A stretch of DNA of 59,407 nt, taken from Candidatus Omnitrophica bacterium UBA6233 (lineage in GTDB: Bacteria; Omnitrophota; Gorgyraeia; Gygaellales; Profunditerraquicolaceae). Position numbers and translations under genes: made by a program. The DNA lies in NCBI GenBank assembly GCA_002440965.1, contig DJWJ01000038.1, forward strand, positions 1 to 59,407, given 5' to 3'. The notes beneath the pieces are model-generated. The model was not told where the DNA came from, did no database searches, and was given only the letters and a program-made list of their open reading frames with translations. This document shows, one piece after another, positions 1,989 to 59,264 of the stretch. How positions within the stretch are numbered: the first letter of the stretch is position 1; each line of letters begins with the position of its first letter.

Positions 1989-3008
1989 CTATTTATTATA
2001 TAGTTTGTTGATATCTTTTAATTTGCTCTTAAGCCAAGTTTGATGCTCAAGCGACCAAGCAACGGTGAGTTTAAGGCCCTGGGCAAGCGAGATATCCGGT
2101 TTCCAGCCGATCTCTCCGGCAGTTTTTGCCGAATTAAGGCTGTATCTTATATCATGGCCGAGGCGGTCTGAGACAAATGCGAATCTGCCGGGATTGGCTC
2201 CCAGGGTTTTGAGTAACAATTTTACTGTATCGATGTTTCTGCTCTCGCAGGCGCCGCCTAAATTATAGACTTCTCCGGCTTTTCCTTTTTTTAGTATCGC
2301 CAAAATACCCCGCGCGCAATCATCAACATAGAGCCATTCGCGCACGTTCAAACCTTTGCCATAAACCGGAATTTTGCCACCCTCCAATATTCTAAGGATA
2401 GCCAGTGGAATCAATTTTTCCGGATACTGCCAAGGGCCATAATTATTTGAAGGGCGAATGATTATCGCGGGGAATTTGTAGGTCCTGATATAGGCTTGAA
2501 CCAAAAGGTCTGCTGCCGCTTTGGAAGCGGCGTAAGGGCTGTTTGGCTTAATAGGGGAATTCTCGGTAAACTTGCCATTGGCGATTTCTCCGTAAACCTC
2601 GTCGGTGGAAATAAAAATAAACTTACTTACTCCGTGTTTACGGGAGGCGTCAAGAAGAACTTGTGTGCCCTTGACATTGGTTTCAATGAATGGCGCGGCA
2701 TCATTAATGCTGCGGTCTACGTGGCTCTCGGCGGCAAAATGAACTACGCTATCCGGCTTTTCCTGAGAAAAAATAGACCTGATTTTGTTTTTATCGCAGA
2801 TATCGGTTTTGTAGAACTTAAAACTTTCTTTTAATTCTTTAAGGCGCTTGAGGTCGCCGGCATAGGTAAGCTTGTCAATAACTATAGGGACGGTTCTATT
2901 CTTATGGCCATTTAGCATAGAACCGTCCCTGATGAATAATCGCACAAAAGCGCTGCCGATAAACCCGGCGCCGCCGGTAATTAATATTTTAGGTATTCTT
3001 TTACGCAT
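1989..3008 (-). CDS. rfbB: dTDP-glucose 4,6-dehydratase
   Basis: [55 protein letters not shown]. Confidence 0.95.
2886..2930. repeat. 45-bp REP-like palindrome (GGACGGTTC family) in frame within rmlB
   Basis: AGGGACGGTTCTAT (2886-2899), 17-nt loop, ATAGAACCGTCCCT (2917-2930); encodes [15 protein letters not shown]. Confidence 0.9.
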
Positions 3009-3802
3009 TCTTCCAGAACCGAATCAATCGGCCTCACTTTAAAACCTGTTTTCTCGAGTTTACGCGTGGACAGGAGTAAATTCGTGCGCACTAACCCTAA
3101 TTTACGGAAATCAATTGTTTCATACTTAAAATCCGGCGCGTATTTCCTGTAAACTTCCATTAACTCGGGGTAGCTTAATCCGCCTTTATTTACCAAATTG
3201 TAAATTCCTCTGGCGTCAATTTTAAGCAAATGTTCCAACGCCCGGATAAAATCAGGAATATAGGTTACCGAATTTTTCAAAGTTATGACTTTTCCATATT
3301 TAATCAATTTATCCAAGACGTTTTTGGGATGCGGTTGGTTCAACAGCGGAATCCGGATGCGGCAAATTAGAATATTATATTTCCTACTAAGTTCGGCCAA
3401 GGCTAACTCGGGATAAATCTTGGAGCGGCTATAAAACAGGCCGAAGAAATCCGGGGTTTTTTCTTCCGCTAGCGGCTTATCCAAAGAATAGTTAAATTTA
3501 AAAATACATCCGCTGCTGATATGCACCAGTTTTATGTTGTTGCGCAAAGCGGCTTCGGCCAAAATAAGCGGAACAAAACTGTTGGCAAGCAGGGTAGCGT
3601 CTTTATCCAGCTCGCAGTCATCCACATTGTTCTTTCCGGTCGAGCCTATGCAATTAATGATGATTTTAGGGTTATACTTTTTGATTATTTTTTCGGCGTC
3701 CTTAAAATTCCGGATGAAACTTGAGCAAATAGCGCAGTCAAAAGCCTTTTGCAGTTTCTCGCCGATAAAACCTTTGCCTAAGATTAATATTTTGTTATTC
3801 AT
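2981..3802 (-). CDS. RmlD-superfamily reductase resembling bifunctional NRS/ER (UER1-type) 3,5-epimerase/4-reductase
   Basis: [41 protein letters not shown]; located between rmlA and rmlB. Confidence 0.75.
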
Positions 3803-4661
3803 TTTTTAGTAAATCCTTCAGGTAATCGCCGTAACTGGTGGGGATCTGCGCGGCTAATTTTAACAGGCGCTTCTTGTCGATATAACCCATTCGATAGCTG
3901 ACTTCTTCGATACAGCCGATTTTCAGGCCCTGCCTCTCTTCGATTGTTTTAATAAATGTCGAGGCGTCGATTAATGATTCGTAAGTTCCGGTATCCAGCC
4001 AAGCGTAACCGCGGCCGAGAAATTTAACTTCCAGCCTGCCTTTTTTTATGTATTCATTATTGACTGCGGTAATCTCTAATTCTCCGCGGCTCGAAGGCTT
4101 AATTTTTTTAGCGATATCAACCACTTTGTTATCATAAAAATACAGGCCGGAAACAACCCAGTTGGTTTGAGGATTTTTCGGCTTTTCCCTTATAGCCGAC
4201 ACCTTGCAATTTTTATTAAATTCAATTACTCCGTAACGGGCAGGATCTTTGACATAATAACCGAATACTAGCGCGCCTTCTTTGATTTTGGCTGCCTCCT
4301 GTAAAAGCTCGCCTAAATTGTATCCGTAGAAAATATTATCTCCGAGGATAAGACAAACGCTGGAATCTCCGATGAATTTCTCGGCGATGATGAAACTTTG
4401 GGCAATACCCCGGGGAGACTCCTGTTGCGCATACGAAAGCTTAATCCCCAGGCTTGCGCCGTCACCCAACAGGTCCTTAAAACGGGGTAAATCTTTGGGA
4501 GTGGAAATAATCAGGATATCCTTTATTCCGGACAGCAGCAAAACCGAAAGCGGATAATAGATCATCGGCTTGTCGTAAACAGGAAGCATCTGCTTGCAAA
4601 CGCCTTTAGTGATAGGATAGAGCCGCGTAGCTTTTCCGCCAGCCAGAATTATGCCTTTCAT
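3795..4661 (-). CDS. rfbA: Glucose-1-phosphate thymidylyltransferase
   Basis: [42 protein letters not shown]. Confidence 0.97.
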
Positions 4662-4921
4662 TTAGCCCCCTTGCCAAATTTAAAATATAAGAATATGAGC
4701 ACGGACAAAGTTATTATGGTTATTACATTTGCGATGATGATTACCGGGTCCCGCCGGAGAATCCCGTAAATTATCCAGAGAAAAACTCCCATGGAGAGCT
4801 GGAATAAAGTGATGGGGCTGACGTCTTTAACAGATTTGGTCCGCAACGACCTGATTATCTGCGGAACAAAAGAAAACATTGTTAAGGTAGCGGCGCTTAG
4901 GCCGATTAGGGTACAGAGCAT
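4658..4921 (-). CDS. SemiSWEET (PQ-loop) sugar transporter
   Basis: 87 aa, three hydrophobic helices, SFVPQIIR...DVS, WIIYG, IIIAN. Confidence 0.85.
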
Positions 4922-4930
4922 AATTGAAAA

Positions 4931-6091: not shown

Positions 6092-6103
6092 ATTTTTTCA
6101 TAT

Positions 6104-6149
6104 AGGGACGGTTCTATGCTAAATGGCTATATAGAATAGAACCGTCCCT
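6104..6149. repeat. Intergenic REP-like palindrome (GGACGGTTC family)
   Basis: 14-bp perfect arms 6104-6117 and 6136-6149; near-identical, inverted copy of the element in rmlB. Confidence 0.9.
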
Positions 6150-6161
6150 GTTTTTAATGTT

Positions 6162-7703: not shown

Positions 7704-7761
7704 TTTAAATTCTCCTTTACGATTTATTATTTAGTTTTGAACTAACCTCTTAACTGAATAG

Positions 7762-10930: not shown

Positions 10931-10993
10931 AATTTAATCGGTTAACTCAAAAGTAAAAACGCAAAAAGTAAAATTGCAAGCCAAAGAAACTGT

Positions 10994-11127
10994 TAATGTC
11001 AAATACCAAATTCCAAAATTCAAAATAAACTTAAATGACAAATTACAAATGACAAAACCCTGGTTTTTATATTTGTAATTTTGATTTTGAATTTATTTTG
11101 TGCTTTGGATTTTGTCATTTGTCATTA
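10994..11127. repeat. Family-1 ~134-bp heptamer-based imperfect palindrome, copy A (proA/nadD)
   Basis: Runs TAATGTCAAAT...AAAACCCTGGTTTT...TTTGTCATTTGTCATTA; one end overlaps the proA stop; AAAAGTA-type heptamers flank it at ~10947-10990. Confidence 0.9.
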
Positions 11128-12384
11128 TTTTCTAATCTGCCCGTTTCCATACACAATATATTTATAGCTGGTCAATTCTTCCAGCCCCATCGGGCCGCGG
11201 GCGTGCAATTTATCGGTAGAGATGCCTATTTCTGCACCCATGCCGAACTGATTTCCGTCGGTAAAACGCGTCGAAGCATTCACATACACACAAGCCGAAT
11301 CCACTCTTTTGAGGAATTCTTTAGCGTTGTTTTCATTGTCAGTAACAATGCTATCCGAATGATGCGAGCCGTATTCATTTATATGGTCAACCGCCTCATC
11401 AAAACTATCCACCACTTTCACCGCAAGGATTAAATCCGAATATTCGGTGCGGTAATCTTTGTCCGTAGCTTTCTTTATCCCATCCTTGCCGATTTTTTGC
11501 GTAAGAGCGCAGCCCCGAATTTCCACTTGGGCTTCTTTAAATTTTTTGAGCATTCCGGGGAGGAAACGGACGGCAACATCGCGATGCACAAGCATACTCT
11601 CCATAGCATTACAAACTCCCGGCCGTTCTACCTTGGCGTTAAAACAAATAGTTTCGGCCATATTCAAATCCGCATAGCCATCGACGAAAACATGACAGAT
11701 TCCTTTATAGTGCTTGATTACGGGTATCCGTGAAAGCTTCACGACTTTTTTAATAAGTCCTTCGCCTCCCCGCGGGATAACCACATCAATATAGTCATTT
11801 AATTTAAGCAAGACGTCGATAGCACGCCTGTCTTTAGTGGTAATAATATTTATGACACCATCCGGAAGATCATTCCTTTTGGCCGCTTCATTAATCGCCT
11901 CAAAAATAGCGATATTGGAATTCAGGGCTTCGCTTCCTCCTCTTAAAATTACGCTATTTCCCGATTTAAAGGTCAAGCCGATACAATCCGCGGTAACATT
12001 CGGACGGGCTTCATAAATTATCGCAATTACACCCAACGGAACGCGCACCTTATGTATCCGCAAACCCGACGGAACCTGCCAGGATTTTATCTCTTTGCCT
12101 ATCGGATCATCTAATTTTATCACCTCTAAGATACCGGAAGCCATAGCCTCTATTCCTTTCTCGTCAAGCGCAAGCCGATCGATGAAGGCGCTGGGTAATT
12201 TTGAGGCGCGAGCCAACGCAATATCTTTTTTATTTGCTTTGAGTATCTGAGCTTTTTTATCTCTCAGATTTCCGGCCATTTCCTTCAGAATCCGGTTCTT
12301 TTCGCTGGCCGCAAGATTAGCGAGGTATCCGCGAGCGGCCTTGGCGTTTTTAGCAATCTGTATGATTTCTTTTTTCAGGTCCAT
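11125..12384 (-). CDS. proA: Gamma-glutamyl phosphate reductase
   Basis: VPLGVIAIIYEARPNVT, GVCNAME, GAEIGIST, HARGPMGL. Confidence 0.97.
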   Translation of the reverse strand: MDLKKEIIQIAKNAKAARGYLANLAASEKNRILKEMAGNLRDKKAQILKANKKDIALARASKLPSAFIDRLALDEKGIEAMASGILEVIKLDDPIGKEIKSWQVPSGLRIHKVRVPLGVIAIIYEARPNVTADCIGLTFKSGNSVILRGGSEALNSNIAIFEAINEAAKRNDLPDGVINIITTKDRRAIDVLLKLNDYIDVVIPRGGEGLIKKVVKLSRIPVIKHYKGICHVFVDGYADLNMAETICFNAKVERPGVCNAMESMLVHRDVAVRFLPGMLKKFKEAQVEIRGCALTQKIGKDGIKKATDKDYRTEYSDLILAVKVVDSFDEAVDHINEYGSHHSDSIVTDNENNAKEFLKRVDSACVYVNASTRFTDGNQFGMGAEIGISTDKLHARGPMGLEELTSYKYIVYGNGQIRK

Positions 12385-20441: not shown

Positions 20442-22001
20442 TTAGGATTTTTCCGAAAACACTTCGGCGGTAAAGATATAAATTTCGGTGGATTTATCTT
20501 TCCAGGCGTCGGGACTAAGCCCTGCTTTATGGGCGCACAAACTCGACATAAATTCCTCTTTTGACCATCCCGTCTCTGTAGCTACCTGAGGAAGGAAAAC
20601 TCCGCTTCTATAACCCTGACGCACCAAAACACCGTGAACCCCAAGCTTAATCAAACCGGGATCGCTGATTTTCTCCATCGGAGATAAAACGGATATCTCA
20701 ATTTCAATATTCTTTAACTCCGGCAGGGTCACCGCGCTGAACCGGGGATCCCCTGTCGCAGCCTCAACAGCCATTTCCTGCACAGTTAAATATAAAGGCT
20801 TTGCGCCTATAAGATTACCGATACAACCGCGAAGTTCGCCATCTTTATTCAAAGTAACAAAAGCCCCCATAGTTTTTTTAAAAACAGGATTCGTCTCGGA
20901 AATTTGGGGCAATTTAGCGTCTTTTAAATATGTTTCTATGGCGGCGCGCGCGATTTCAAGCAACTTCTTCTTTTGAGTCTCATTAAACATAGCTTTTTCT
21001 CCTCCCGGTTCATCAATCGCCCAACTCGAATATCCTACGGTCCAGATACCTTTCTTCATATTGCCGGTAACTTCCGCGGAATTCGTATGTTTTAATAGAA
21101 TCGCTTTATTATGGCCTAAGCTTTTTGACAAAATCAGGGCGGTAACCGCTCCAAAACCGCCGCAAAGCTGCATCTTTTCATCGCGAATCCCAAAATAGAG
21201 AGCTTCTCCATCCATTTGATTTATAGCAGCATTAGTGAGGTTGTCTACTTTATCTGCCTCATCATAATCGTATCCGTGATACATATCCGTAGAAACCACG
21301 ATCAGAATATCTTCACGCTCTCCTATGGCTTCTTTAAGCAACACGGCGAGCTTTTGACAGGCAGACAGAGAAGCGTCTCCTATGACTATCGGGACAATTT
21401 TTCCGCCAGAAGCAGACCCGCCTTCGGGAAAGAAACTCGGAAGGGTCTTTTGTAAAAACGGCAGCTGGACTTCGACGCTGTGCTCTTCTCTGAAAGCTTG
21501 CGGAACAAAAGTTATTTCGGGATCTTTGTTAAGCAATTTTTGGGCGAATTCATTGTCCACCGGAATCTCTCCCAGAGGAGTTCTAAATGCTCCGTTCGGA
21601 TAAACCGAAACTCCGCTAAAAGGATAACGGTGGCTTGTCCCCAGGATTATCACTGTTTTATACGGCTTATCCTTTATCAGTTTGTAGCCGAAGGCCGCGA
21701 CTTTACCGGAATACCCGTATCCGGCATGAGGAGAAATCAAGGCAAAAATGCGGGCACCGGGATTTTCGGGATTCGCTTCGTCCAAATAACCTTCGATAAC
21801 CTTAGACAGCTCTTTGGGGTCATCAGGATAAAATGCGCCGGATACGCAAGGCTCCTTAATATCACCAGCATAAGATAAATGACAAATGTCAAAATCCAAA
21901 GCACAAAATAATACCAAAGCACAAAACACAAATGTCAAAATCCTTGACTTGATATTTGTCATTTTGATTTTGGATTTATTTTGGATTTTGAATTTTGTCA
22001 T
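20442..22001 (-). CDS. AmmeMemoRadiSam protein B (MEMO1-like) fused to protein A (AMMECR1-like), with repeat-derived signal-like leader
   Basis: EPCVSGAFYP, PHAGYGYSG, EHSVEVQLPF, STDMYH (MEMO); GAFVTL...LRGCIG, DPRF, GVFLPQVA (AMMECR1). Confidence 0.92.
   Translation of the reverse strand: MTKFKIQNKSKIKMTNIKSRILTFVFCALVLFCALDFDICHLSYAGDIKEPCVSGAFYPDDPKELSKVIEGYLDEANPENPGARIFALISPHAGYGYSGKVAAFGYKLIKDKPYKTVIILGTSHRYPFSGVSVYPNGAFRTPLGEIPVDNEFAQKLLNKDPEITFVPQAFREEHSVEVQLPFLQKTLPSFFPEGGSASGGKIVPIVIGDASLSACQKLAVLLKEAIGEREDILIVVSTDMYHGYDYDEADKVDNLTNAAINQMDGEALYFGIRDEKMQLCGGFGAVTALILSKSLGHNKAILLKHTNSAEVTGNMKKGIWTVGYSSWAIDEPGGEKAMFNETQKKKLLEIARAAIETYLKDAKLPQISETNPVFKKTMGAFVTLNKDGELRGCIGNLIGAKPLYLTVQEMAVEAATGDPRFSAVTLPELKNIEIEISVLSPMEKISDPGLIKLGVHGVLVRQGYRSGVFLPQVATETGWSKEEFMSSLCAHKAGLSPDAWKDKSTEIYIFTAEVFSEKS
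21402..21428. repeat. Degenerate 27-bp CCGCC-type palindromic insertion in amrB (PEGGSASGG)
   Basis: Plus strand TCCGCCAGAAGCAGACCCGCCTTCGGG interrupts the LQKTL..F-KIVPIV segment. Confidence 0.6.
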
Positions 22002-22009
22002 TTGTCATT
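21878..22009. repeat. Family-1 palindrome, copy B (coding; forms the amrB leader)
   Basis: AATGACAAATGTCAAA...TTTTGTCATTTGTCATT; abuts the amrS stop. Confidence 0.9.
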
Positions 22010-23112
22010 CACTTCCATATTCCTGCGATATTTTCCCCGCAGAACTTACATTTACCGTCTTTTAAATCATTCCGGACGATAAAATAACCGCGGCGCTCAA
22101 TGACAATTTTCCCGCAACGGGGGCAATACGTATTCTCCGCCGGATTAGCCGGGATATTACCGATATAAACATACTTTAAACCGCATTTAATGGCGATATT
22201 CCTGGCTTTCTCAAGGGACTCAACCGGAGTAGGATTAAGGCTGATCAACTTATACATAGGGAAAAACCTCGAAAAATGTAACGGCGTATCCGGCCCTAAA
22301 TTATCTTTAATCCACAAGCACATCTTCCTTAGAGATTCTTCGTCATCATTAAACCCCGGCAGAAGCAAGGTAGTTATCTCGATATGCACGCCTTCGCTTT
22401 TCAACACCTTCAGGGAATTCAAAACCGGCGCAAGCGCGCCTTCAGTCAACTTCGAATAATAATCATCGCTAAAACCTTTAAGGTCGATATTGGCGCCATC
22501 AAGATATTTTGCCAAAGCCCTAAGCGGAGCTTCGTTGATGTAGCCATTTGAATGCATAACATTCTTTAACCCCTGCTGACGGGCGGATTTTGCCGTCTCC
22601 AGCATATATTCATAAAAAATAGTCGGTTCGCTATAGGTATAGGCAATACTTGCGGATCCGGAATCCTTAGCCTCCCTTACTAACTCGGACGGCTCAAGAT
22701 AACGATATTCCACTTCTTCGGGACTACTCTGGGATATTGCCCAATTCTGGCAGAATTTGCATTTTAAGTTACATCCCGCAGTAGCTATAGAATAGGCATT
22801 GGTCGAGGGAAGGAAATGAAAGAACGGTTTTTTCTCTATCGGGTCAATATGTATAGCTACAGGCTTGGCGTAAACTAAACTATAAAGAGTCCCGCCGCGG
22901 TTCTGGCGCACTCCGCAATATCCCCGCGCTCCGTCCGGAATCATACATCGACGAGGACAAAGCTGGCATTGAACGGCATTTTTCTCCAGTTTTTGATAAA
23001 ACCGCGCTTCCTTTAATTGCTCTAAACTAAACAGATTAGGCAGGTAAATACAAGACAAGGCTAAAGAAAGAAGGATAACGACGCTAAAAATCAATCTGCC
23101 TGCATTCTTCAT
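22009..23112 (-). CDS. amrS: AmmeMemoRadiSam radical SAM enzyme with hydrophobic N-terminus
   Basis: CQLCPRRC, DPIEKKPFFHF, GCNLKCKFCQNW, YTYSEP, HFSRFFP, C-terminal CPRCG/CKFCG. Confidence 0.93.
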   Translation of the reverse strand: MKNAGRLIFSVVILLSLALSCIYLPNLFSLEQLKEARFYQKLEKNAVQCQLCPRRCMIPDGARGYCGVRQNRGGTLYSLVYAKPVAIHIDPIEKKPFFHFLPSTNAYSIATAGCNLKCKFCQNWAISQSSPEEVEYRYLEPSELVREAKDSGSASIAYTYSEPTIFYEYMLETAKSARQQGLKNVMHSNGYINEAPLRALAKYLDGANIDLKGFSDDYYSKLTEGALAPVLNSLKVLKSEGVHIEITTLLLPGFNDDEESLRKMCLWIKDNLGPDTPLHFSRFFPMYKLISLNPTPVESLEKARNIAIKCGLKYVYIGNIPANPAENTYCPRCGKIVIERRGYFIVRNDLKDGKCKFCGENIAGIWK

Positions 23113-23144: not shown

Positions 23145-23217
23145 TGGAGCTGAGGAGGATCGAACTCCTGGCCTCCTCGTTGCGAACGAGGCGCTCTCCC
23201 AACTGAGCTACAGCCCC
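23145..23217 (-). tRNA. tRNA-Ala(CGC), CCA not encoded
   Basis: GGGGCTGTAGCTCAGTTGGGAGAGCGCCTCGTTCGCAACGAGGAGGCCAGGAGTTCGATCCTCCTCAGCTCCA; G3:U70 pair; anticodon CGC. Confidence 0.96.
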
Positions 23218-28622: not shown

Positions 28623-30233
28623 TTAGCGTTTAGTTTCGAAACTATTCAAATAAGTACTCATACTCTGCTGCCGGGCCAAAGGAACGATTTTAGCCTGTTC
28701 CCGTAAAGGAAGAACCGCATTTTTACCCGGAACAGAAGGGGCCTTATCGCTTTTCACAATATGCGGGGTAATAAAAACCAAAAGTTCTCTTTCTTGTCCC
28801 GGGCTTTGGCTCTTATGCCTGAATAAAGCTCCTAAAAAAGGTATATCCCCTAAAAAAGGAAGTTTAGTGATAACCGTGCTATTCTGGTTCCGGATTAAAC
28901 CGCCTAAAACTACGGTTTCGCCGTCTTTTACGCGCACAGTAGTCTTGGTGCTGCGCACCTCCGGATTAAGAAACGTATATGTCGAGCCACCGCTGTTAAA
29001 AGTAGAGCTGGTAGTCGAGGCTTCGGAGACCTGCGGATAAACAAACATCAGAATTTCTCCTGCCTCAAGATCAATCTGGGGGGTTACTCTTAGCGAGACG
29101 CCGGTTTCATAACGCTCAGGGGTTGCGGTTATCGCACCTGTAGTAGTCTGGCTTGTCGAAGTAACACCTATAGCCTCATCAGTAACGATTTTCACTTCAG
29201 CAGTTTCATTATTCAAAGTCAGTATTTTCGGCCGCGCCAGGAATTTTGTATCAGTTTGCACCCTTAAGAAATCCAGCTGCATATTATAAATACTGGTCCC
29301 GTTATTCCCGTTACTGACATCTATCGACCCAGAGGTAAGAGTTTTGGCAACGCTTCTAAACGAATACATCGAAGGGCTAAAAGGATACTCGGTGCTAATA
29401 GTAGCTCCTTTTATGGCTATACTGAACGGCGTTTGCCCGAACTTAAAACCGATTTGATCGACATTTTTCTTGCTTACATCCAGAATTTCAACCTCAAGCA
29501 TAACCTCCGGGACAGAAACATCCAGCGAGGCAATAACTTGAGTTACTACTTCCATCTTGCTGGGTATATCCGTAACTATAAGGCTATTAGTCCGGTAATC
29601 CTCCACTACTGAACCATCCTTGGTTAAAATTTTCTTTATCGCCTGAGTGATGCCGCTTTCCTCTTCAACTTTCCATTTGCCGGTATCGGAAGTGGAACTC
29701 GAAGACGAACCCGAGGAACTAGAAGACGAACCCGAGGAACTAGAAGAACCAGAGGAACCGGAGGAACCAGAGGAATTGGAGAAACTACTGCTTGTCCCGC
29801 TTAAATTATTCTTCATTTCCTCTTTTAATGAAGAGGAAGAAACCGTAGCGTGTTTTAAGTAAAAAACCTTCGTTACTGTCTTGACTGCGGGTTTCCCCCA
29901 GTCATTGACGATAAAAACGCTGGCTTCTTTATCCAAGTCATAAGTAAGATTGTTGGCTTTGAATATTTTATCCATCGCCTCTTTTAAAGGCACCTTATCC
30001 ATATAAAGGGTTATCTTCCTGTCCTCAAGCGCCTCGGAAGCTACAAAGTTCAACCCGGACTGGATCGAAAGAAGCTTCAGCACGTCCTTCAGAGAAGCAT
30101 CTTGTAAATCCATGGAGATAAAAACATCTCCCTCAGACAGCGGAGCCGATGCTCCGTAAACATATAACCCGGGAGAAAAAATAATATTAAAGAAAAAGAA
30201 TATGGAAACTAATAATCGAGAAATACTTTTCAT
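28623..30233 (-). CDS. Secretin (PilQ/GspD-type) with Ser-rich loop
   Basis: ISMDLQDASLKDVL, DYRTNSLIVTD, RPKILTLNNETA, VKDGETVVLGGL, PFLGDIPFLGALF. Confidence 0.93.
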   Translation of the reverse strand: MKSISRLLVSIFFFFNIIFSPGLYVYGASAPLSEGDVFISMDLQDASLKDVLKLLSIQSGLNFVASEALEDRKITLYMDKVPLKEAMDKIFKANNLTYDLDKEASVFIVNDWGKPAVKTVTKVFYLKHATVSSSSLKEEMKNNLSGTSSSFSNSSGSSGSSGSSSSSGSSSSSSGSSSSSTSDTGKWKVEEESGITQAIKKILTKDGSVVEDYRTNSLIVTDIPSKMEVVTQVIASLDVSVPEVMLEVEILDVSKKNVDQIGFKFGQTPFSIAIKGATISTEYPFSPSMYSFRSVAKTLTSGSIDVSNGNNGTSIYNMQLDFLRVQTDTKFLARPKILTLNNETAEVKIVTDEAIGVTSTSQTTTGAITATPERYETGVSLRVTPQIDLEAGEILMFVYPQVSEASTTSSTFNSGGSTYTFLNPEVRSTKTTVRVKDGETVVLGGLIRNQNSTVITKLPFLGDIPFLGALFRHKSQSPGQERELLVFITPHIVKSDKAPSVPGKNAVLPLREQAKIVPLARQQSMSTYLNSFETKR

Positions 30234-34087: not shown

Positions 34088-36517
34088 TTACTTATCCAGC
34101 GCCTTAAGCTGATTAATCCGTTCTTCGGCGTATTTGGATTCAGGCAAATCCATATTAGATATTCTTGCGTAAGCCTTTATGGCTTCCTGATAATTACCTC
34201 TGTCTTCATAAGCTCTACCCAATCTGAAAAGAGCCGTAATAGTAACCCTATCGCTTGCATTCGACAACTTAGTTACCTCTACATACTCTTTCATGGCATC
34301 ATCAAAATTACCTCTGGCTTCTTCAATCTCGGCTATCTTAAGGTGCAACCCCGGCTGGTCTTTGGAGAGCGCTCCATTCAGGCTGTTGTGGTAACAATCC
34401 AAAGCGTTACTATAATCTCCGGTTTTAAAAAACAGCTCTGCCAAAGCAACGGATGCTTTTGACTTGATATCCGCTTTATTAGAACTAACGGCTTTTCTAA
34501 AACAATCCAGCGCTTCTTTATTTTTTGCCCCATCTATATAAGCAAGACCTAAAGCGTAATAGGCATCTGGCAATAAGCCGCTTTTGGGAAAATCCTGTAT
34601 AAGAGAAAGAAAATAGCGGGCTGCCAAATCAAATTCTTTATGCTGGTAATAGTAAATCCCTAACCACCATATGATATCGGGAGTAAAGCTGGAATCGGGG
34701 TATTTTGAACGCAGGGCTTTGAACTTCGCCAGCGCTTCTTCATTCTTACCCATTTGATACAAGGAATCCGCCTGCCCATATTCGGCTTTCTGAATCAACT
34801 CAATATCACCCGCTCCCAATCTGGAAACTTCTTTGAATGCCTGAGCAGCCGAAACATAATCTCTCAAATTATAGAAGCTGTTCCCTAAGAGATACAGAGC
34901 TTTAGGCCTTATTTCGCTACCGCTAAAATCATCCCGAAACCTTTTAAGAGCAATCTTGACCGAATTATAATCCTGCTTACTGAAATAAGCCAAACCGAGC
35001 GTATAAACAGCATCATCAAGAAAATTGGAAGAAGGGAATTCTTTTTCCAGCGTCTTGAGGCTTGAAATCGCCTCTTCAATCTTGGCGTCTTTCAAATAAA
35101 CCGAACCTAGCTGGCATAAAACATAATCGCTGCAGGAAGAATCCGGATATCTCTCCAAGAAAAGATTATATGTTTCTTGCGCCTTCCCATAGTTTCCTTC
35201 CTCCTGATACGCATCTCCTATCTGGCAAAGGGCGTTAATTTTAAACGCATCATCGCAACCCGAATCAACAACCTTCCTGAATTCTTCCACGGCTTCCATA
35301 GCTTTGCCTTCATTCAACAATGATTTACCCAAGCTATAATATAATTTATCCACAACCTGTCCTATGCTCTTATCTTTCGGGTTGATTCTAGCCAAAGCCT
35401 GGCGATAGGATTTTGAAGCCTCGGAATAATCCGCTAAACTGTACGCAGCATCAGCTTTGCCCATCAGCCCCTGGAGGATAATCAAAGGGTCTCCTGCCAA
35501 ACCCAACAATTCTTCATATGATCTCTTGGCCTGATTTATACGATTGGTTTCCATCAATAACATAGCTTTCCCCAACAAAAAGATTTCCCGGTTTCGCCTA
35601 TCCAGATTCTCCTGTTTTATCCCCGAAAAAATATCTTCGGCATCTCTATACCGTTTTAATTTAAGATACGCCCAACCTAAATCAAGCTTAGCCAAAGCAT
35701 TTAGTTTATCATCCGGATTACCGGACAAAACCTTGGAATATGCTTCTACCGAACCGATAAAATTCCCCAGATAATAGTTAGCCTCGCCTAAATAAAAATA
35801 AAGATAGGACACTTTAAGGGTATCTTTGGAAAACTCTTTGATCGCCAGGTCAATTTTATCGATTAAAGAAGAATACTCCTTCAAGTTATATAGACATTCT
35901 ATAATTTTAAGCGCGGCATCTTTACTTTGAGGCTCGCTGGGGTATTTCTTGTTCAGGACAGTAAAAAAATGCAACGCTTCCTTAAATCTCTGCTCTTGGA
36001 ACAAGCACCATCCCAAAGAATAATACGCGATTGGCGCATAAGAAGAAACGGGAAATTCTTTTATAATCTTGTCATAATAAGAAATTGCCTCGGGATAATC
36101 GTTTTTCTTAAAATTGACTTCGGCAATCCAGTAATAAAGGCTGTCTTTTACGGATTTGGCTGCGGGGTTCTCCAATAGTTCATTAAATTTGGCCAAGGCA
36201 AGGGCTAGTTTATCCTGATGAAAATAGCATTCGCCAATCAACAGATTCACTTCAATTCTCCGGGGAGAATCCGGATAATTCTTTAAAAAGCGCCCTAACA
36301 ACCCAAGGCTTACTTCATAATAACCATCCTCATAGGCTTTTTGGGCCATAAAAATAGTCTCTTCCTCTTTGGCTGATTCACCAGCGTAAGATAAATGACA
36401 AATACCAAAATTCAAAGCACAAAATAATGACAAAGCATAAAACACAAAAGACAAAACTTTAATTTTGATATTTGACATTTGGACTTTGGATTTATTTTGA
36501 ATTTTGAATTTTGTCAT
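34088..36517 (-). CDS. Multi-TPR protein with repeat-derived signal-like leader
   Basis: Numerous TPR units (AYYSLGWCLFQ, ALYLLGNSFYN, YP.S motifs); leader 35/47 identical to the amrB leader. Confidence 0.9.
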   Translation of the reverse strand: MTKFKIQNKSKVQMSNIKIKVLSFVFYALSLFCALNFGICHLSYAGESAKEEETIFMAQKAYEDGYYEVSLGLLGRFLKNYPDSPRRIEVNLLIGECYFHQDKLALALAKFNELLENPAAKSVKDSLYYWIAEVNFKKNDYPEAISYYDKIIKEFPVSSYAPIAYYSLGWCLFQEQRFKEALHFFTVLNKKYPSEPQSKDAALKIIECLYNLKEYSSLIDKIDLAIKEFSKDTLKVSYLYFYLGEANYYLGNFIGSVEAYSKVLSGNPDDKLNALAKLDLGWAYLKLKRYRDAEDIFSGIKQENLDRRNREIFLLGKAMLLMETNRINQAKRSYEELLGLAGDPLIILQGLMGKADAAYSLADYSEASKSYRQALARINPKDKSIGQVVDKLYYSLGKSLLNEGKAMEAVEEFRKVVDSGCDDAFKINALCQIGDAYQEEGNYGKAQETYNLFLERYPDSSCSDYVLCQLGSVYLKDAKIEEAISSLKTLEKEFPSSNFLDDAVYTLGLAYFSKQDYNSVKIALKRFRDDFSGSEIRPKALYLLGNSFYNLRDYVSAAQAFKEVSRLGAGDIELIQKAEYGQADSLYQMGKNEEALAKFKALRSKYPDSSFTPDIIWWLGIYYYQHKEFDLAARYFLSLIQDFPKSGLLPDAYYALGLAYIDGAKNKEALDCFRKAVSSNKADIKSKASVALAELFFKTGDYSNALDCYHNSLNGALSKDQPGLHLKIAEIEEARGNFDDAMKEYVEVTKLSNASDRVTITALFRLGRAYEDRGNYQEAIKAYARISNMDLPESKYAEERINQLKALDK

Positions 36518-36526
36518 TTGTCATTA
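36393..36526. repeat. Family-1 palindrome, copy C (coding; forms the TPR leader)
   Basis: AAATGACAAATACCAAAA...TTTTGTCATTTGTCATTA; 4 bp from the uvrA stop. Confidence 0.9.
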
Positions 36527-36530
36527 AATC

Positions 36531-41266: not shown

Positions 41267-41289
41267 GGAATTATTATAACATAAATGAA

Positions 41290-41326
41290 GGACGGTTCCG
41301 TTCTTTTTGAGAAAACAGAACCGTCC
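41290..41326. repeat. Third GGACGGTTC-family hairpin (possible terminator)
   Basis: GGACGGTTC (41290-41298) ... GAACCGTCC (41318-41326). Confidence 0.75.
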
Positions 41327-41343
41327 CCTTGTTTTTCCTTAGA

Positions 41344-41583
41344 TTATTTCTTTTTCTTCTTGCCGCCTCTTTTCATCTTGGCGCAGGAAACATCACCCTG
41401 CTTATCCAAGAAATAAAGGTAGCCTTCTTTTCTCTTGATACCGCATTTAGCTACTTTTTTGGGACTGCCTCCTTTTTTAGAGCCTCTAGCCATCTTGGCG
41501 CAGGAAACATCACCCTGCTTGTCAATGTAATAGAGGAATCCCTTCTGCCTCTTTACTCCCAACTTCGCTATTTTTTCTGCCAT
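41344..41583 (-). CDS. Small, very basic two-repeat protein, putative nucleic-acid-binding
   Basis: RBS GGGGGTG before the ATG at 41583; two units K.AK.G.KR..G.LY..DKQGDVSCAKM.RG; Lys-rich tail. Confidence 0.85.
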   Translation of the reverse strand: MAEKIAKLGVKRQKGFLYYIDKQGDVSCAKMARGSKKGGSPKKVAKCGIKRKEGYLYFLDKQGDVSCAKMKRGGKKKKK

Positions 41584-41660
41584 TTTCGTATTCACCCCCT
41601 CTCGTTTAAGAATTTTTGAACTATGCGCGTGAACCGCAACTTAAAACTGGTTATTTAGTT

Positions 41661-41794
41661 TAATGACAAATGACAAAGCACAAAATTCAAAATAAATTTA
41701 AATGACAAAATCCAAATGACAAAACCTTGGTTTTGACATTTGTAATTTTGATTTTGAATTTATTTTGTGCTTTGAATTTTTTCATTTGTCATTA
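41661..41794. repeat. Family-1 palindrome, copy D
   Basis: TAATGACAAATGAC...AAAACCTTGGTTTT...TCATTTGTCATTA; AAAAGTA-type heptamers flank it at ~41795-41825. Confidence 0.92.
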
Positions 41795-41843
41795 CACTTT
41801 TTACTTTTAACCTTACTTTTTGGCCATCACTCAATACTCTTTT

Positions 41844-46977: not shown

Positions 46978-47106
46978 TAATATCCAATCACCAAATCAGA
47001 ATGTCGAATGAAATCCCCTGCTTGTCGGCAAACAGGCAATTACTCAATATCCCAATTGTAACTTGGGATTTGATTAATTCATTCGTCATTGGGGCTTGTA
47101 TATTGA
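46978..47106. repeat. Family-2 (CCAAT/ATTGG) heptamer element carrying a nested 20-bp palindrome
   Basis: Homologous, inverted, to 54622-54733; extra CCTGCTTGTCGGCAAACAGG at 47017-47036. Confidence 0.85.
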
Positions 47107-47817: not shown

Positions 47818-47880
47818 CTAACACCTCTCTTATAATGAATGACCCTAGAACTGCTACGTCAACTAAAAAATCAAAAACTT

Positions 47881-47996
47881 TAATGCCAAATACCAAAGCG
47901 CAAAATTCAAAATAAATCTAAATGACAAATATTAAATAACAAAACATTAGTTTCGGTATTTGGTATTTGAGCTTTGGATTTTGTCATTTGTCATTA
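47881..47996. repeat. Family-1 palindrome, copy F (116 bp, one arm shortened)
   Basis: TAATGCCAAATACCAAAG...TTTTGTCATTTGTCATTA; AAAAGTA heptamers at 47997-48023. Confidence 0.88.
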
Positions 47997-48022
47997 AAGT
48001 TTTTACTTTTAACTTTTTACTT

Positions 48023-48898
48023 TTATAATAACCCATAATCTCTTAGCGCTTTTCTTAATTTTTCCAGATTTTCAGGCAACATTTCGCACATCGGCAGCCT
48101 TAAATCCGGTTCACACATCCCTAATAACCCCAGCGCTGTCTTTACCGGGATAGGATTAGTTTCAATGAATAAAGCTTTGACTAACGGCAATAATTTATAA
48201 TGCAGCTCCCTGGAGCGCCCGATATCGCCTTTTTCAAAAGCGCCGACTAAATCTGCGACATCCCGGGGGACGATATTGGCAGCTACAGAAATTATCCCTG
48301 TCCCGCCAATACTTAAAACCGGAAGAGTCAAACTGTCATCCCCGGAAATTAATTCGAAATTATCCGGACAAAGCGCTTTTATGCGCGACATCTGATCCAG
48401 GTTTCCCGACGCCTCTTTCACCGCAATAATATTTTTGCAATCATTAGCCAACTTTGCCATTGTTTCCGGCTCAATATTTACTCCGGTCCGTCCGGCAATA
48501 TTATAAAGCACAATCGGTATCTTCACCGATTGGGCGACAGCCTTAAAATGCTCATACAGCCCTCTTTGCGTCGGACGGTTATAATACGGGGATATCTGCA
48601 GAGACGCATTCACACCCGCCTTTACTGCCTGCTTAGTCAAAGCTATTGCCTCTTCGGTCGAATTTGACCCGGTCCCTGCAATTACCGGAACCCTCCCCGC
48701 TACTTGCCCGATAGTTACTTCAATTACTCTTTCGTGTTCTTCAAAAGACAAGGTAGCGGATTCTCCGGTCGAACCGCAAGGAACAATCCCGCTAGATCCA
48801 TTTTTAATCTGAAATTCAATTAACTCCCCAAGCTTCTTTTCGTCAATCCTTCCATTTCTAAAGGGCGTAACAACAGCTACAATAGAGCCTCTAAACAT
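48023..48898 (-). CDS. dapA: 4-hydroxy-tetrahydrodipicolinate synthase
   Basis: GSTGESATL, PYYNRP, LYNIAGRT, VKEASG, ETNPIPVK. Confidence 0.97.
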   Translation of the reverse strand: MFRGSIVAVVTPFRNGRIDEKKLGELIEFQIKNGSSGIVPCGSTGESATLSFEEHERVIEVTIGQVAGRVPVIAGTGSNSTEEAIALTKQAVKAGVNASLQISPYYNRPTQRGLYEHFKAVAQSVKIPIVLYNIAGRTGVNIEPETMAKLANDCKNIIAVKEASGNLDQMSRIKALCPDNFELISGDDSLTLPVLSIGGTGIISVAANIVPRDVADLVGAFEKGDIGRSRELHYKLLPLVKALFIETNPIPVKTALGLLGMCEPDLRLPMCEMLPENLEKLRKALRDYGLL

Positions 48899-49715
48899 AA
48901 TATTCCCCCTTATAAACTATTTCCGCTTTGCCTTCCAGCCAAACATTGCTAAAATTATTTACCTTTTTATCAAAATAAATCCTGAGCATTTCACCGCTTT
49001 GCGTGCGGACGTTTATTCTACGGTGAGTCAGGTCGCCAGTAAGCAGGCCGAAGACCAAAGCCGAAGCGACGCTTCCTGTTCCACAAGCCAGGGTCTCGCC
49101 CTCTACCCCTCTTTCATAGGTCCTTACATTTATTGAATCATTTCCTGCTGCTTCCACAAAATCGACATTTACCCCTTTTGGCGAAAATTCCTTATGATAA
49201 CGAATTTGACTTCCAACAGTTGCCACATCAATCTTATCCAAACCTTCCACGAATATTACCGCGTGCGGAACTCCGGTATTGATAAAATTAATTTCTAGCC
49301 GGCAACCATTTATCAATACAGGAATGCCTAATTTTAAACCGCAAGGAGAAGTAAGTTTTATCCTAACGTTTTCTTTTTTCACCAAGGAATCGAGGATTCC
49401 GGCTTTGGTCTCTATTTTTGGCTTTTGGCTTTTGGCTTTTGGCTTTTGGCTTGATAAATATAAGGCGGCGCAGCGAGCGCCATTTCCGCACATTTCGGCT
49501 TCCGAGCCATCAGCGTTAAAAATACGCATTTTTATATCGGCTTTCTTCGACTTCTCCAAAACAAGCAGGCCGTCTGCGCCTACGCCGTATTTCCGGTTAC
49601 AAATCTTCTCGGCCAAATCACTGAAATTTTTGACTTCTGACTTCTGACTTCTGACTTCAGTAACAACGAAATCATTACCCGTTGCCACCATTTTGGTAAA
49701 TTTTATCTTCTTCAT
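48891..49715 (-). CDS. dapF: Diaminopimelate epimerase with two heptamer-derived insertions
   Basis: GNDF, EMCGNGARC, NTGVPH, ERGVEGETLACGTG. Confidence 0.96.
   Translation of the reverse strand: MKKIKFTKMVATGNDFVVTEVRSQKSEVKNFSDLAEKICNRKYGVGADGLLVLEKSKKADIKMRIFNADGSEAEMCGNGARCAALYLSSQKPKAKSQKPKIETKAGILDSLVKKENVRIKLTSPCGLKLGIPVLINGCRLEINFINTGVPHAVIFVEGLDKIDVATVGSQIRYHKEFSPKGVNVDFVEAAGNDSINVRTYERGVEGETLACGTGSVASALVFGLLTGDLTHRRINVRTQSGEMLRIYFDKKVNNFSNVWLEGKAEIVYKGEYYV
49416..49450. repeat. (TTTTGGC)x5 tandem repeat within dapF
   Basis: Five perfect units; encodes QKPKAKSQKPK. Confidence 0.95.
49631..49658. repeat. (TGACTTC)x4 tandem repeat within dapF
   Basis: Four perfect units; encodes EVRSQKSEV. 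Confidence 0.95.
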
Positions 49716-49716
49716 C

Positions 49717-50985: not shown

Positions 50986-51006
50986 TTATTCTCTTTCTCC
51001 TTTTCG

Positions 51007-52454: not shown

Positions 52455-52514
52455 CCCCTGAAATAAACCAGTCCCTGGCGTTTTGGTTTATTTCACCCAG
52501 AGCTCTGCGAAGGG
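52455..52514. repeat. TGAAATAAACCA palindrome plus adjacent CAGAGCTCTGCGAAGG motif
   Basis: 12-bp perfect arms 52459-52470 and 52484-52495 in the argG/argH spacer. Confidence 0.75.
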
Positions 52515-52517
52515 AAA

Positions 52518-53699: not shown

Positions 53700-53703
53700 T
53701 TAA

Positions 53704-54621: not shown

Positions 54622-54733
54622 GACAATTCCCAATCTCCAAGTCCCAATGACGAATGAATTTCCAAATCCCAACTTCCAATTGAGGCATTGAGTAATTGGG
54701 ATTTCATTCGACATTGAATCATTGGATATTGAC
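54622..54733. repeat. Family-2 heptamer element (argD/argF junction)
   Basis: CCCAATCTCCAAGTCCCAATGACGAATG...ATTGGGATTTCATTCGACATTG...ATTGGATATTG. Confidence 0.85.
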
Positions 54734-55951: not shown

Positions 55952-55997
55952 TTTATTTTGGCTAAATTAAGGTAAATATAGGTTAAAACAAAACTGT

Positions 55998-56131
55998 TAA
56001 TGTCAAAGGTCAAAGCCCAAAACTCAAAATAAGCACAAATTACAAATACCCAATATCAAAACCTTGGTTTTGATATTTAACATTTGGATTTTGAATTTAT
56101 TTTGGGCTTTGAATTTTGTCATTTGTCATTA
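55998..56131. repeat. Family-1 palindrome, copy G (argB/argD)
   Basis: TAATGTCAAAGG...AAAACCTTGGTTTT...TTTGTCATTTGTCATTA; shares the AAACTGT flank with copy A. Confidence 0.92.
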
Positions 56132-56143
56132 TTAAATTATCTT

Positions 56144-56998: not shown

Positions 56999-57010
56999 CT
57001 TTGTCCTCGC

Positions 57011-58147: not shown

Positions 58148-58149
58148 TT

Positions 58150-58232
58150 TAATACCAAAGGTCAAAGCTCAAAATTCAAAATAAATCTAAATGACAAATA
58201 CCCAATGACAAAACCTTGGTTTTGGATTTTGA
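58150..58232. repeat. Family-1 palindrome, copy H (one arm truncated)
   Basis: TAATACCAAAGGTCAAAG...AAAACCTTGGTTTTGGATTTTGACATTTG. Confidence 0.85.
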
Positions 58233-58241
58233 CATTTGAGT

Positions 58242-59264
58242 TTATAATAACCCCATTGTCTCCGGGAATCCATACATTATATTCATATTCTGCACTGCCT
58301 GGCCAGAAGCCCCTTTTATCAGATTATCGATAGCACAAATTATAATCACGCTGTCAGGATTATTCATTATTCCAATGTCACAAAAATTAGTGCCCACCGC
58401 ATCTTTTAATCCCGGGAATTCCCCTTGCGCTTTTATCCTTACGAAAGGTTCGTTTTTATAAAATTTCTTATATAAATCAACCGGTTTTTGAATTTTGAAT
58501 TTTGAATTTTGAATTTTCTGCACATATATCGTCTCTAATATTCCTGCTCTTACCGGTAATAGATGCGGCACAAAAATTACATTAATCTTTTTACCCGCCA
58601 GCTTCGATAGCGCCTGATTGATTTCCGGGGTATGCTGGTGCACTCCAACCTTATAGGCCTTGAAATCCTCTTTGTCTCGCGAAGAAAAGAATTCTTCGGT
58701 TTTCTTTCTCCCGGCACCGCTTACGCCTGATTTGGCATCAATAATTATCGAGTTAAAATCCACCGGCCCCAAAGCCACCAGCGGGGCTAACGCCAGTATT
58801 GCTGCCGTCGGATAACATCCCGGATTAGCGACAATCTTCGCTTTTTTTATTTCGGCCCTGCATAATTCAGGGAGTCCGTAAACGGAAGCTTTTAAATTCG
58901 GTTTATCTTTATGCTTATATTGATAAAATTCTTCATAGACCTTAGAATCCTTGAGCCTATAATCGGCGCTCAGGTCAATTACCCTTTTACCCGCCTTAAT
59001 CAATTGCGGGACCAAGTCCATCGAAGAAGTGTGCGGCAAAGCCAGAAATACAGCATCGCATTTATCGACGATGTTCTTTATATCCGCTTTCGAACAAACT
59101 AATTCGAGTTTGCCGGAAAACTTGGGGAATATCTTAGAAATCGGCTTACCGAAAGCGCTGCCTGAAAAAAGCCCGGAAATTTTAACTTGCGGGTGATTAA
59201 GCAGGAGCCGAATCAATTCTTCTCCTGTATACCCAGTCACCCCCACGATTCCGACATTTATCAT
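58242..59264 (-). CDS. argC: N-acetyl-gamma-glutamyl-phosphate reductase
   Basis: GVTGYTG, DLSADYRL, ANPGCYPT, SGVSGAG, IDNLIKGASGQA. Confidence 0.97.
   Translation of the reverse strand: MINVGIVGVTGYTGEELIRLLLNHPQVKISGLFSGSAFGKPISKIFPKFSGKLELVCSKADIKNIVDKCDAVFLALPHTSSMDLVPQLIKAGKRVIDLSADYRLKDSKVYEEFYQYKHKDKPNLKASVYGLPELCRAEIKKAKIVANPGCYPTAAILALAPLVALGPVDFNSIIIDAKSGVSGAGRKKTEEFFSSRDKEDFKAYKVGVHQHTPEINQALSKLAGKKINVIFVPHLLPVRAGILETIYVQKIQNSKFKIQKPVDLYKKFYKNEPFVRIKAQGEFPGLKDAVGTNFCDIGIMNNPDSVIIICAIDNLIKGASGQAVQNMNIMYGFPETMGLL
58486..58517. repeat. (TTTTGAA)x4 tandem repeat within argC
   Basis: Four units plus a partial unit; encodes KIQNSKFKIQK. Confidence 0.95.

Follow-up and report, generated by a model that had tools for sequence, protein, structure and literature searches.

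Small palindromic and heptamer repeats between and within core genes of an Omnitrophota genome segment and their likeness to four-helix-bundle gene cassettes

How several families of tiny palindromes and 7-nt repeats came to lie between, and even inside, core genes is the question raised by a 59,407-nucleotide stretch of Candidatus Omnitrophica bacterium UBA6233 (contig DJWJ01000038.1, positions 1 to 59,407; the whole stretch is called the window below). An earlier note on this DNA had proposed a system of mobile micro-elements that adds new protein sequence. Our analysis indicates that this Omnitrophota core segment has probably been invaded repeatedly by small non-autonomous repeats, and that families 1 and 2 probably represent the form without an open reading frame (ORF) of a widespread heptamer cassette that elsewhere encloses a four-helix-bundle (4HB) gene. 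Families 1 and 2 are accordingly filed as putative ORF-less derivatives or relatives of 4HB cassettes, not as full cassettes. At least four separate families are present, which are not shown to be one system, and their mobility is suggested by comparison of genomes rather than observed.

Repeat families of the window and their patchy occurrence

Family 1 is an imperfect palindrome of about 135 nt, and seven copies, one of them truncated, were located by coordinate, in line with the earlier count of at least seven. Each arm consists of degenerate 7-nt units (AATGACA, AATGACA, AAGCACA, AAATTCA, AAATAAA and so on, mirrored as ... TTTGTCATTTGTCATT); the arms are 61-70 nt long and 73-77% complementary, giving a long terminal stem. 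The end motif TTTGTCATTTGTCA occurs 15 times in the window at no more than 2 mismatches against 0.67 expected, an excess of about 20-fold, and TTTGTCA repeated 2.3 times is present at six element ends. Each of the six full copies folds into one long hairpin (minimum free energy -27 to -49 kcal/mol, z -3.8 to -9.2), and none of 200 shuffles folded as well. Similarity between copies was higher in direct than in inverted orientation (0.78 versus 0.74; direct higher in 11 of 15 pairs), which suggests that family 1 is co-oriented with transcription. The copies, and the heptamer run beside one of them, are as follows.

10990-11128, minus strand: family 1, between proA and nadD, the proA stop TAA lying in the terminal TTA; -38 kcal/mol, z -5.9
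21876-22010, minus strand: family 1, between amrS (whose stop overlaps it by 1 nt) and the AmrB/AmrA fusion gene; z -7.9
36392-36527, minus strand: family 1, between uvrA and a TPR (YbgF/BamD-like) gene; z -7.9
41658-41796, minus strand: family 1, downstream of nadX and followed by TTTTTAC-type heptamers; -48.7 kcal/mol, z -9.2
47873-47997, minus strand: family 1, at the dapA/dapB junction; also in the ~90%-identical contig L388 save for 11-nt and 31-nt indels
48000-48024, minus strand: imperfect TTTTTAC heptamer run at the end of dapA, beside family 1; a similar run lies at 10949-10973
55994-56133, minus strand: family 1, at the argB/argD junction, with ATGAA on either side of the 192-nt insert
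58148-58241, minus strand: truncated family 1, filling argC/argJ, giving argC its TAA stop and adjoining the argJ ATG

Intergenic copies had been said often to abut stop codons; this was seen at proA, within the terminal TTA, and at amrS, with the 1-nt overlap, but the stops of uvrA and argB are 4 and 12 nt away.

The argC-J-B-D-F operon, syntenic in about 45 Omnitrophota metagenome-assembled genomes (MAGs), allowed the junctions to be compared between genomes. The gaps between its cistrons, with medians of -1, 14, 3 and -4 nt across the MAGs, measure 94, 12, 192 and 97 nt in the window, and junctions without an insert are usually ATGA overlaps or gaps of a few bases. The closest GTDB relatives (L228 and L229, 70-74% ArgJ identity) have none of the arg inserts and overlapping junctions, and one further genome (L230) carries a family-1 copy at argC/argJ. 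At the same junctions other MAGs have palindromes of AGTGGCN, TAGTCGT, TAGGGCG, CAGTAGA or CGCTAATTAC units, or hairpins of the GGGGACG type. Hairpins of CCCCGCACCTTCC at arg junctions have direct TGAA on both sides and change the downstream ATG to GTG, and CCCCGC..GCGGGG hairpins in L237 and L242 are bordered by direct TGAA repeats. In the window, ATGA(A) stands on both sides of the three arg junction inserts, a pattern to be expected if the ATGA overlap was briefly duplicated as a target, leaving both stop and start codon in place, but equally if a stop and a start codon were selected for.

Family 2 is a CCCAAT-type palindrome of about 100 nt, whose two copies, the number given earlier, are 85% identical over 62 nt. 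An element had also been reported in frame in argD; this was not borne out, as the family-2 copy has the argD stop (54719-54721) on one side and the argF start (54621) on the other. It is read through only when the ORF is extended mechanically, and argF orthologues start at the downstream ATG. Smaller hairpins accompany these families. The box GGGACGGTTC has 13 matches in the window at no more than 1 mismatch against 6.5 expected, a number reached in 0 of 100 shuffles, and the three hairpins ascribed to it were recovered, each as a single hairpin. Together with the 20-nt CCTG..CAGG mini-palindromes, from which they are distinct, they make up separate families of very small dispersed hairpins. 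The CCTG..CAGG palindrome and the TGAAAT hairpin of the earlier note were also found, the former nested inside the family-2 copy at dapB/dapL; the TTCGAC and CCGCC palindromes proved to be short, undistinctive matches. Identities of the GGGACGGTTC box with attC sites, CRISPR repeats or dif sites were considered and dropped because the core motifs do not fit.

54622-54718, minus strand: family 2, between argD and argF, with ATGA on either side
46985-47105 (approximate limits), plus strand: second copy of family 2, in the opposite orientation, at the dapB/dapL junction
47017-47037, no strand assigned: 20-nt mini-palindrome CCTGCTTGTCGGCAAACAGG (CCTG..CAGG), nested in family 2
2886-2930, minus strand: 45-nt hairpin AGGGACGGTTCTAT-N17-ATAGAACCGTCCCT, in frame in rmlB, 15 codons; z -6.7
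6104-6149, plus strand: GGGACGGTTC hairpin as in rmlB with the loop inverted, intergenic between tyrS and rpsA; z -8.2
41288-41328, no strand assigned: variant GGACGGTTC hairpin, intergenic; z -5.6
52459-52495, no strand assigned: single TGAAAT hairpin with 12-bp perfect arms TGAAATAAACCA / TGGTTTATTTCA, intergenic

Perfect tandem arrays of at least three units were found in the window at period 7 only, with none at periods 4-6 or 8-11, and no such period-7 array arose in any of 200 Markov shuffles of the window. There are three, all in coding DNA, as had been reported (49416-49452 TTTTGGC, 49631-49658 TGACTTC and 58486-58517 TTTTGAA, read on the plus strand).

49631-49658, minus strand: (GAAGTCA)x4 in dapF loop 1, encoding EVRSQKSEV
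49416-49452, minus strand: (GCCAAAA)x5.3 in dapF loop 2, encoding SQKPKAKSQKPK, 7 aa more than in the shortest orthologues
58486-58517, minus strand: (TTCAAAA)x4.6 in an argC loop, encoding KIQNSKFKIQK

Both dapF arrays are in frame, as claimed. The argC array is also in frame, but it is no net insertion, since about 40 orthologues show a loop of equal length. At dapF site 1 the window has (GAAGTCA)4 and L388 a GCCAAAA-type array; at site 2 the (GCCAAAA)5 of the window corresponds to an equal-length run with a 14-nt period in L388, and to one GCCAAAA plus a different hairpin in the more distant L389. The coding heptamer arrays thus appear partly to be formed in situ, turning over without change of length.

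The sharpest comparison was with L388 itself, whose nucleotide identity to the window is about 90%. The 20-nt CCTG..CAGG palindrome of the window is precisely missing there, with intact flanks and no target duplication, and the L388 dapF site-1 array holds a different 21-nt palindrome. The family-1 copy at dapA/dapB and the family-2 copy at dapB/dapL are common to both sequences and are therefore older. Across Omnitrophota the RmlB loop is hypervariable: an orthologue of 84% identity (P0122) lacks the hairpin, and other loops carry variant hairpins (GDGS..RTVP, WGRSYF..NRSVP, WDRFYF..NRNGPI), PACPAGR repeats or elements of the VIARREAPKQS type. In DapF, three sites are hypervariable, and P0002-5 are without both arrays. 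Alignment of orthologues thus revealed inserts that are patchy rather than universal at the same sites, and further copies occur in other genomes, both of which support the interpretation of the repeats as mobile micro-elements. Other in-frame or junction hairpins seen in Omnitrophota are of the PACPAGRQA type (CCTGCC..GGCAGG) and of the VIARSEATKQS / SLRAPKGRSNL type (GTCATTGCGAG..CGAAGCAATC), carried by P0101, P0209, P0183, P0229, dapF site 2 of L389 and argJ/argB of L238 and L255.

The insertions also alter proteins, as the earlier note had proposed: 15 aa are added to RmlB by its in-frame hairpin, 7 aa to a DapF loop, and 45-aa N-termini to the AmrB/AmrA fusion and the TPR protein. Family 1 is stop-free in one frame, which reads MTKFKIQNKSKIKMTNIKSR-ILTFVFCALVLFCAL-DFDICHLSYAG, and this peptide forms the N-terminus (about 45 residues) of the latter two proteins. 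Its basic segment, from the A-rich arm, is followed by a hydrophobic one, which the T-rich arm encodes, and by an end of small residues, an arrangement like that of Sec signal peptides. The element reported in frame in amrB was confirmed: family 1 contains the start of the ORF, residue 49 is the first of the AmrB domain, and, as no in-frame ATG or GTG lies between the element and the conserved domain, the AmrB start codon must lie in the element. Four more Omnitrophota proteins in other genomes bear the peptide in the same frame. A word-indexed protein search with the 47-aa peptide gave no match and a full HMMER search gave five representatives, all matching at residues 1-48, so that family 1 as an N-terminus is sporadic, not common. 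Family 1 may have been co-opted as a secretion signal; on a Memo-like protein such a signal would not be expected. The orthologues of one 300-aa gene in Nostoc spp. begin with MTNDKIQVIGIDVGGT, so that a TTTGTCA (STRR2) array has provided the start codon and the six codons at the beginning (loci L139, L143, L179, L183, L186, L193, L207, L216 and L220).

Heptamer arms around four-helix-bundle genes

Pattern scans of other genomes with the 22-nt family-1 end and with a 13+13-nt GGGACGGTTCTAT stem found more than 100 loci each (more than 109 and more than 119 among the matches listed by the two scans), so that the further copies looked for do exist. Full family-1 palindromes occur in many Omnitrophota; the 22-mer is also present in MAGs labelled Planctomycetales, Desulfobacterales, Elusimicrobia, Patescibacteria and others, and verbatim in Nostoc, within classical STRR arrays.

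Some of the loci with the family-1 motif are elements of 420-650 nt containing a 115-134-aa ORF that matches TIGR02436 (E 4e-26 to 2e-19), the S23p / 23S-rRNA intervening sequence (IVS) protein family, related to the diversity-generating retroelement (DGR) protein Avd. The earlier note had pointed to TIGR02436 genes as candidate drivers, and such 4HB genes are indeed enclosed elsewhere by family-1-type heptamer arms: three long heptamer palindromes contain TIGR02436 ORFs, and long family-1-related elements with a 4HB ORF were found at L191, L199, L123, L214 and L225. Only five 4HB genes are present among 307 loci, and all five directly adjoin a family-1 motif. The 4HB gene is the sole kind of ORF found between arms of this type, with no transposase among them, and the nearest solved structure to these ORFs is 2RLD. 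L225 (Candidatus Magnetocorallium) also has a perfect (GACGATT)x14 array at positions 1-100, adjoining a 4HB cassette with AATCGAAAATTGTCAATCG-type arms.

The association was then approached from the 4HB side, with 80 loci fetched from many phyla, of which 73 were compared with offset controls. Upstream and downstream flanks were complementary above the 95th percentile of the controls in 67 of the 73, with a median score of 39 versus 17. Within the arms, identity was 0.405 at lag 7 and 0.365 at lag 14, compared with 0.25 in far flanks and ORF interiors, and 7 was the best lag in 85 of 130 arms. An nhmmer profile built from the window's six full family-1 copies alone matched DNA adjoining 4HB ORFs at nine loci (E 1e-6 to 1e-2), matches that have to be read with the caveat of low-complexity composition.

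A tblastn search of plasmids with an Omnitrophota 4HB protein returned 31 records, mostly from Nostoc, Anabaena and Planktothrix. In all eight Nostocales/Planktothrix plasmid 4HB loci fetched from these records, heptamers in perfect tandem lie upstream of the gene and the reverse complement of the array lies downstream. The units were AATTCAA/TTTTGAA, AATTCGC/GCGAATT, GAAGTCG/CGACTTC, GTAATTC/GAATTAC, CCCCAAT and GTAAAAA, several of which recall the window: TTTTGAA is the unit of the argC array, GAAGTCG is close to the dapF unit GAAGTCA, GTAAAAA is the unit of the TTTTTAC runs, and CCCCAAT also is like units of the window. Several cyanobacterial 4HB cassettes lie between genes of one operon, as between cas2 and cas1. 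There the plasmids of Nostoc sp. TCL26-01 (L390) and Anabaena cylindrica PCC 7122 (L392) have a GTAAAAA-armed 4HB gene; elsewhere among the plasmids, a cassette of similar kind comes after a helicase gene. The cassette architecture is common to classical rRNA IVSs and cyanobacterial STRR repeats.

The S23p/four-helix-bundle family is listed as functionally uncharacterised. In the Coxiella 23S IVS, two or three tandem GACAGAT heptamers precede the S23p ORF; the IVS has a 28-bp terminal stem and is excised by RNase III (PMC4990558). For Xanthomonas (X. campestris), GGGAATC arrays in 70-75 convergent pairs have been described with no mention of 4HB genes (PMC4692102). In the open literature no paper was found that states a general association of 4HB genes with heptamers or with STRRs (curated database comments lie beyond that reach), and nothing was found on these Omnitrophota elements.

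The small hairpins behave differently from family 1 in this respect. The GGGACGGTTC box is present in Omnitrophota, Clostridia (including Butyrivibrio isolates), Bacteroidaceae, Aminicenantes and others, usually after gene ends, and is nested as X-box-X' ... X-box'-X', with X lineage-specific. No recurrent gene was found within 1.2 kb of it when 962 ORFs from 119 loci were clustered. ORFs between paired GGGACGGTTC copies, considered as a possible driver, were ordinary genes. At L083 (Omnitrophota, JAPLLY010000056.1), positions 120-540, a perfectly nested palindrome of about 400 nt surrounds a central GGGAACGTTTCTAT hairpin with inverted copies, in turn, of a GTGCTCAA segment, a TTATTGCGAGG..CGAAGCAATC hairpin and a GGGGACGGTTC hairpin; it is either a result of stepwise inverted duplication or an assembler product.

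The window itself is an Omnitrophota core-gene region. Its RmlB is 100% identical to a Candidatus Omnitrophota MAG protein, and the close relatives of its DapF and ArgJ are all from Omnitrophota. The G+C content is 42%, the GC skew of the plus strand is negative, and nearly all genes are on the minus strand. They include housekeeping genes (rmlB, rmlD, rmlA, tyrS, rpsA, rpe, nadD, proA, proB, obg, rplU and the RNase G gene), the AmmeMemoRadiSam set, a cluster resembling type IV pilus and type II secretion systems, uvrA, nadX, dapL, dapB, dapA, dapF, lysA and argF-D-B-J-C. As stated in the earlier note, no mobilising enzyme is encoded: transposase, RAYT, reverse transcriptase, IS200/605, DDE and 4HB genes (the last by hmmsearch) were all absent from the window. 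An Rfam scan of the window returned a single tRNA only, with no rRNA and no family matching the hairpins; the tRNA gene lies at 23145-23217 on the minus strand (67 bits), between the AmmeMemoRadiSam genes and the pilin cluster. The secretin gene (28623-30233) contains a coding tandem repeat at 29694-29785 on the minus strand with 9-, 18- and 21-nt periods (GGAACTAGAAGACGAACCCGA), which gives an acidic Glu/Pro-rich linker and has no relation to the heptamer families. A basic 83-aa ORF at 41344-41595, minus strand, consists of two repeats of about 38 aa (KLGVKRQKGFLYYIDKQGDVSCAKM...); it is flanked by the GGACGGTTC hairpin and a family-1 copy, in a region 84% identical to the Omnitrophota contig L077.

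Explanations for the repeats

If the repeats have invaded this segment, a transposition-like spread of the families would be driven by a function encoded elsewhere, for which the 4HB protein is a candidate partner. Repeats would land or survive only at permissive sites, namely ATGA-type cistron overlaps, where a short duplication would keep both stop and start codon, and enzyme surface loops, in which only in-frame copies would persist. Arrays would then expand or turn over by unit-wise slippage or conversion, and coding arrays would be held to the reading frame, three units being 21 nt or seven codons. The long AU-rich stems would presumably be cut by RNase III, as in IVSs.

Several observations weigh against this account. 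The window itself has neither a 4HB gene nor any recombinase, and we know of no transposition activity of a 4HB protein. The S23p protein of Coxiella is probably not even expressed (PMC4990558). The GGGACGGTTC hairpins have no link to 4HB genes and no enriched neighbour. The ATGA(A) pairs at the arg junctions could equally come from selection for a stop and a start codon, and the argC array has arisen without any change of length relative to orthologues. At dapF site 1 an identical (GAAGTCA)4 is present in L389, of 68% amino acid identity, while L388 differs; since the distant sequence has the identical array and the close one another, simple insertion does not explain this site. Arm complementarity within an element is barely above that between elements (0.696 versus 0.668), and the hairpin may merely reflect the family consensus; because the excess is small, it was not used as evidence for selection on structure.

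Some of these points would be expected if the heptamer arrays and arms were simple-sequence repeats produced by polymerase slippage, and the palindromes products of local inverted duplication, with no mobile element involved. Slippage accounts well for the unit-wise turnover at dapF site 2 (a single GCCAAAA in L389, five in the window, the 14-nt-periodic run of equal length in L388), for the unchanged argC loop and for the 11-nt indel, about 1.5 units, between the dapA/dapB copies of the window and L388; the over-representation of heptamers in bacteria has been attributed to it (Rehm 2015, PMC4692102), and the nested palindrome of L083 suggests that inverted duplication occurs. It cannot, however, put one family of about 135 nt at seven unrelated junctions or in more than 100 loci of other genomes, and it leaves unexplained the precise 20-nt presence/absence difference between the window and L388, the (GAAGTCA)4 shared with a distant but not the closest orthologue, and the systematic inverted array pairs around 4HB genes. 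We therefore regard slippage as a rather unlikely explanation. The hairpins might instead be RNA or DNA signals selected by the host, such as RNase III sites, mRNA-stabilising stems or bidirectional terminators. Their position exactly between operon cistrons, the excess of direct over inverted similarity and the very strong folding z-scores agree with this, as do the GGGACGGTTC hairpins which elsewhere follow gene ends with A-tracts and T-tracts, like intrinsic terminators; IVS stems, moreover, are real RNase III substrates (PMC4990558). Yet the same junctions are hairpin-free overlaps in most relatives, hence the elements are dispensable, copies lie inside coding sequence, in which termination or cleavage would do harm, and neither an Rfam match nor more than weak arm covariation was found, which makes a host signal improbable.

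[quoted passage not shown] The GGGACGGTTC units of other phyla occur as inverted doublets of a small hairpin (X-box-X' ... X-box'-X'), as in REPINs, and the TGAA direct repeats at the L237 and L242 hairpins and ATGA(A) at the window inserts resemble target duplications. Nevertheless, the window has no RAYT, IS200/605 or DDE gene, the 119 GGGACGGTTC loci share no recurrent gene within 1.2 kb, the only ORF between family-1-type arms is the 4HB gene, and the 20-nt palindrome was inserted without duplication; we give such transposases little credence. That the repeats are artefacts of MAG assembly or binning is scarcely conceivable. Many matches do lie near contig ends, and perfect long palindromes such as that of L083 can be assembler products, but a contig-end location is expected of multi-copy repeats, the elements are in frame in conserved genes and common to independent assemblies, and they are present in the isolates Butyrivibrio, Nostoc punctiforme PCC 73102 and Anabaena cylindrica PCC 7122.

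Invasion by small non-autonomous repeats, with families 1 and 2 as ORF-less relatives of the 4HB cassette, is thus the explanation that we favour. A broader proposal, which we put forward tentatively, is that the heptamer arrays and heptamer-armed palindromes of many bacterial phyla, among them STRRs, the Xanthomonas GGGAATC pairs, rRNA-IVS arms and the Omnitrophota elements, may be parts or relics of one class of 4HB (Avd-like) cassette. It would spread by a mechanism new to science, perhaps one that is RNA- or hairpin-templated, with a pentameric 4HB protein reading its own 7-nt repeats, and host genes would acquire from it stop and start codons, loops in enzymes and even signals for secretion.

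Comparison with known repeat systems

To our knowledge, neither STRR repeats (1990) nor rRNA intervening sequences (1990) have a known origin or mode of spread. The present analysis brings both phenomena under a common architecture, in which a 4HB gene stands between inverted heptamer arrays, and adds uncultured phyla to its range, with ORF-less forms located within operons and enzymes. The question is directly testable, as the culturable Nostoc punctiforme PCC 73102 and Anabaena cylindrica PCC 7122 carry perfect examples. The repeats also have practical effects, since they fill MAG protein catalogues with spurious N-terminal extensions and strange stretches of low complexity, and break assemblies. 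They also illustrate how start and stop codons, loops and a plausible signal peptide can arise from repeats so small.

Apparently new are the phylum of the host, the location of the repeats within operons and enzymes, and the unifying connection of heptamer arrays with 4HB cassettes; the parts resemble IVSs, STRRs, small dispersed repeats (SDR) and Rickettsia palindromic elements. The rRNA IVSs with an S23p ORF (Leptospira, Coxiella, Brucella, Xanthomonas) are like family 1 in their long inverted-repeat terminal stem, in tandem heptamers, of variable copy number, by the ORF start (GACAGAT in Coxiella, PMC4990558), and in the TIGR02436 cargo, an ORF that the family-1 relatives of other genomes carry too. 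Unlike IVSs, the window copies have no ORF, lie at mRNA operon junctions or in coding sequence rather than in 23S helices 25/45, and have arms with much longer heptamer runs (about 65 nt).

Mazel et al. (1990) reportedly described the cyanobacterial heptamers STRR2, TT(G/T)GTCA, and STRR1, CCCCA(A/G)T. The earlier comparison of families 1 and 2 with these proved apt: the family-1 ends are TTTGTCATTTGTCA, the 22-mer occurs verbatim in Nostoc arrays, and family 2 is CCCAAT-rich. The arrays of Nostoc and Planktothrix also flank 4HB genes as inverted pairs. The window elements differ in belonging to Omnitrophota and not to a heterocystous cyanobacterium, and in having degenerate units in one compact palindrome instead of long perfect one-sided arrays. 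The SDR of Nostoc are said to have been described by Elhai et al. (2008), and this comparison of the earlier note also held, the palindromes of about 20 nt being inserted precisely, without target duplication, and nested in family 2 and in the L388 dapF array. The phylum differs, and the likeness is one of behaviour.

Rickettsia palindromic elements likewise are in-frame hairpins in surface loops of conserved genes, as seen here in rmlB and dapF. This likeness, too, is in behaviour only, since the sequences are unrelated, the units found here are much smaller (20-45 nt in coding DNA) and the host is not an obligate intracellular alphaproteobacterium. ERIC/IRU, Correia (CREE) and REP/BIME elements resemble the window repeats as imperfect palindromes of 100-150 nt between cistrons, variably present and with a driver that is trans-acting or unknown, but they lack arms with a 7-nt period, have no full-length form bearing a 4HB gene and belong to different taxa.

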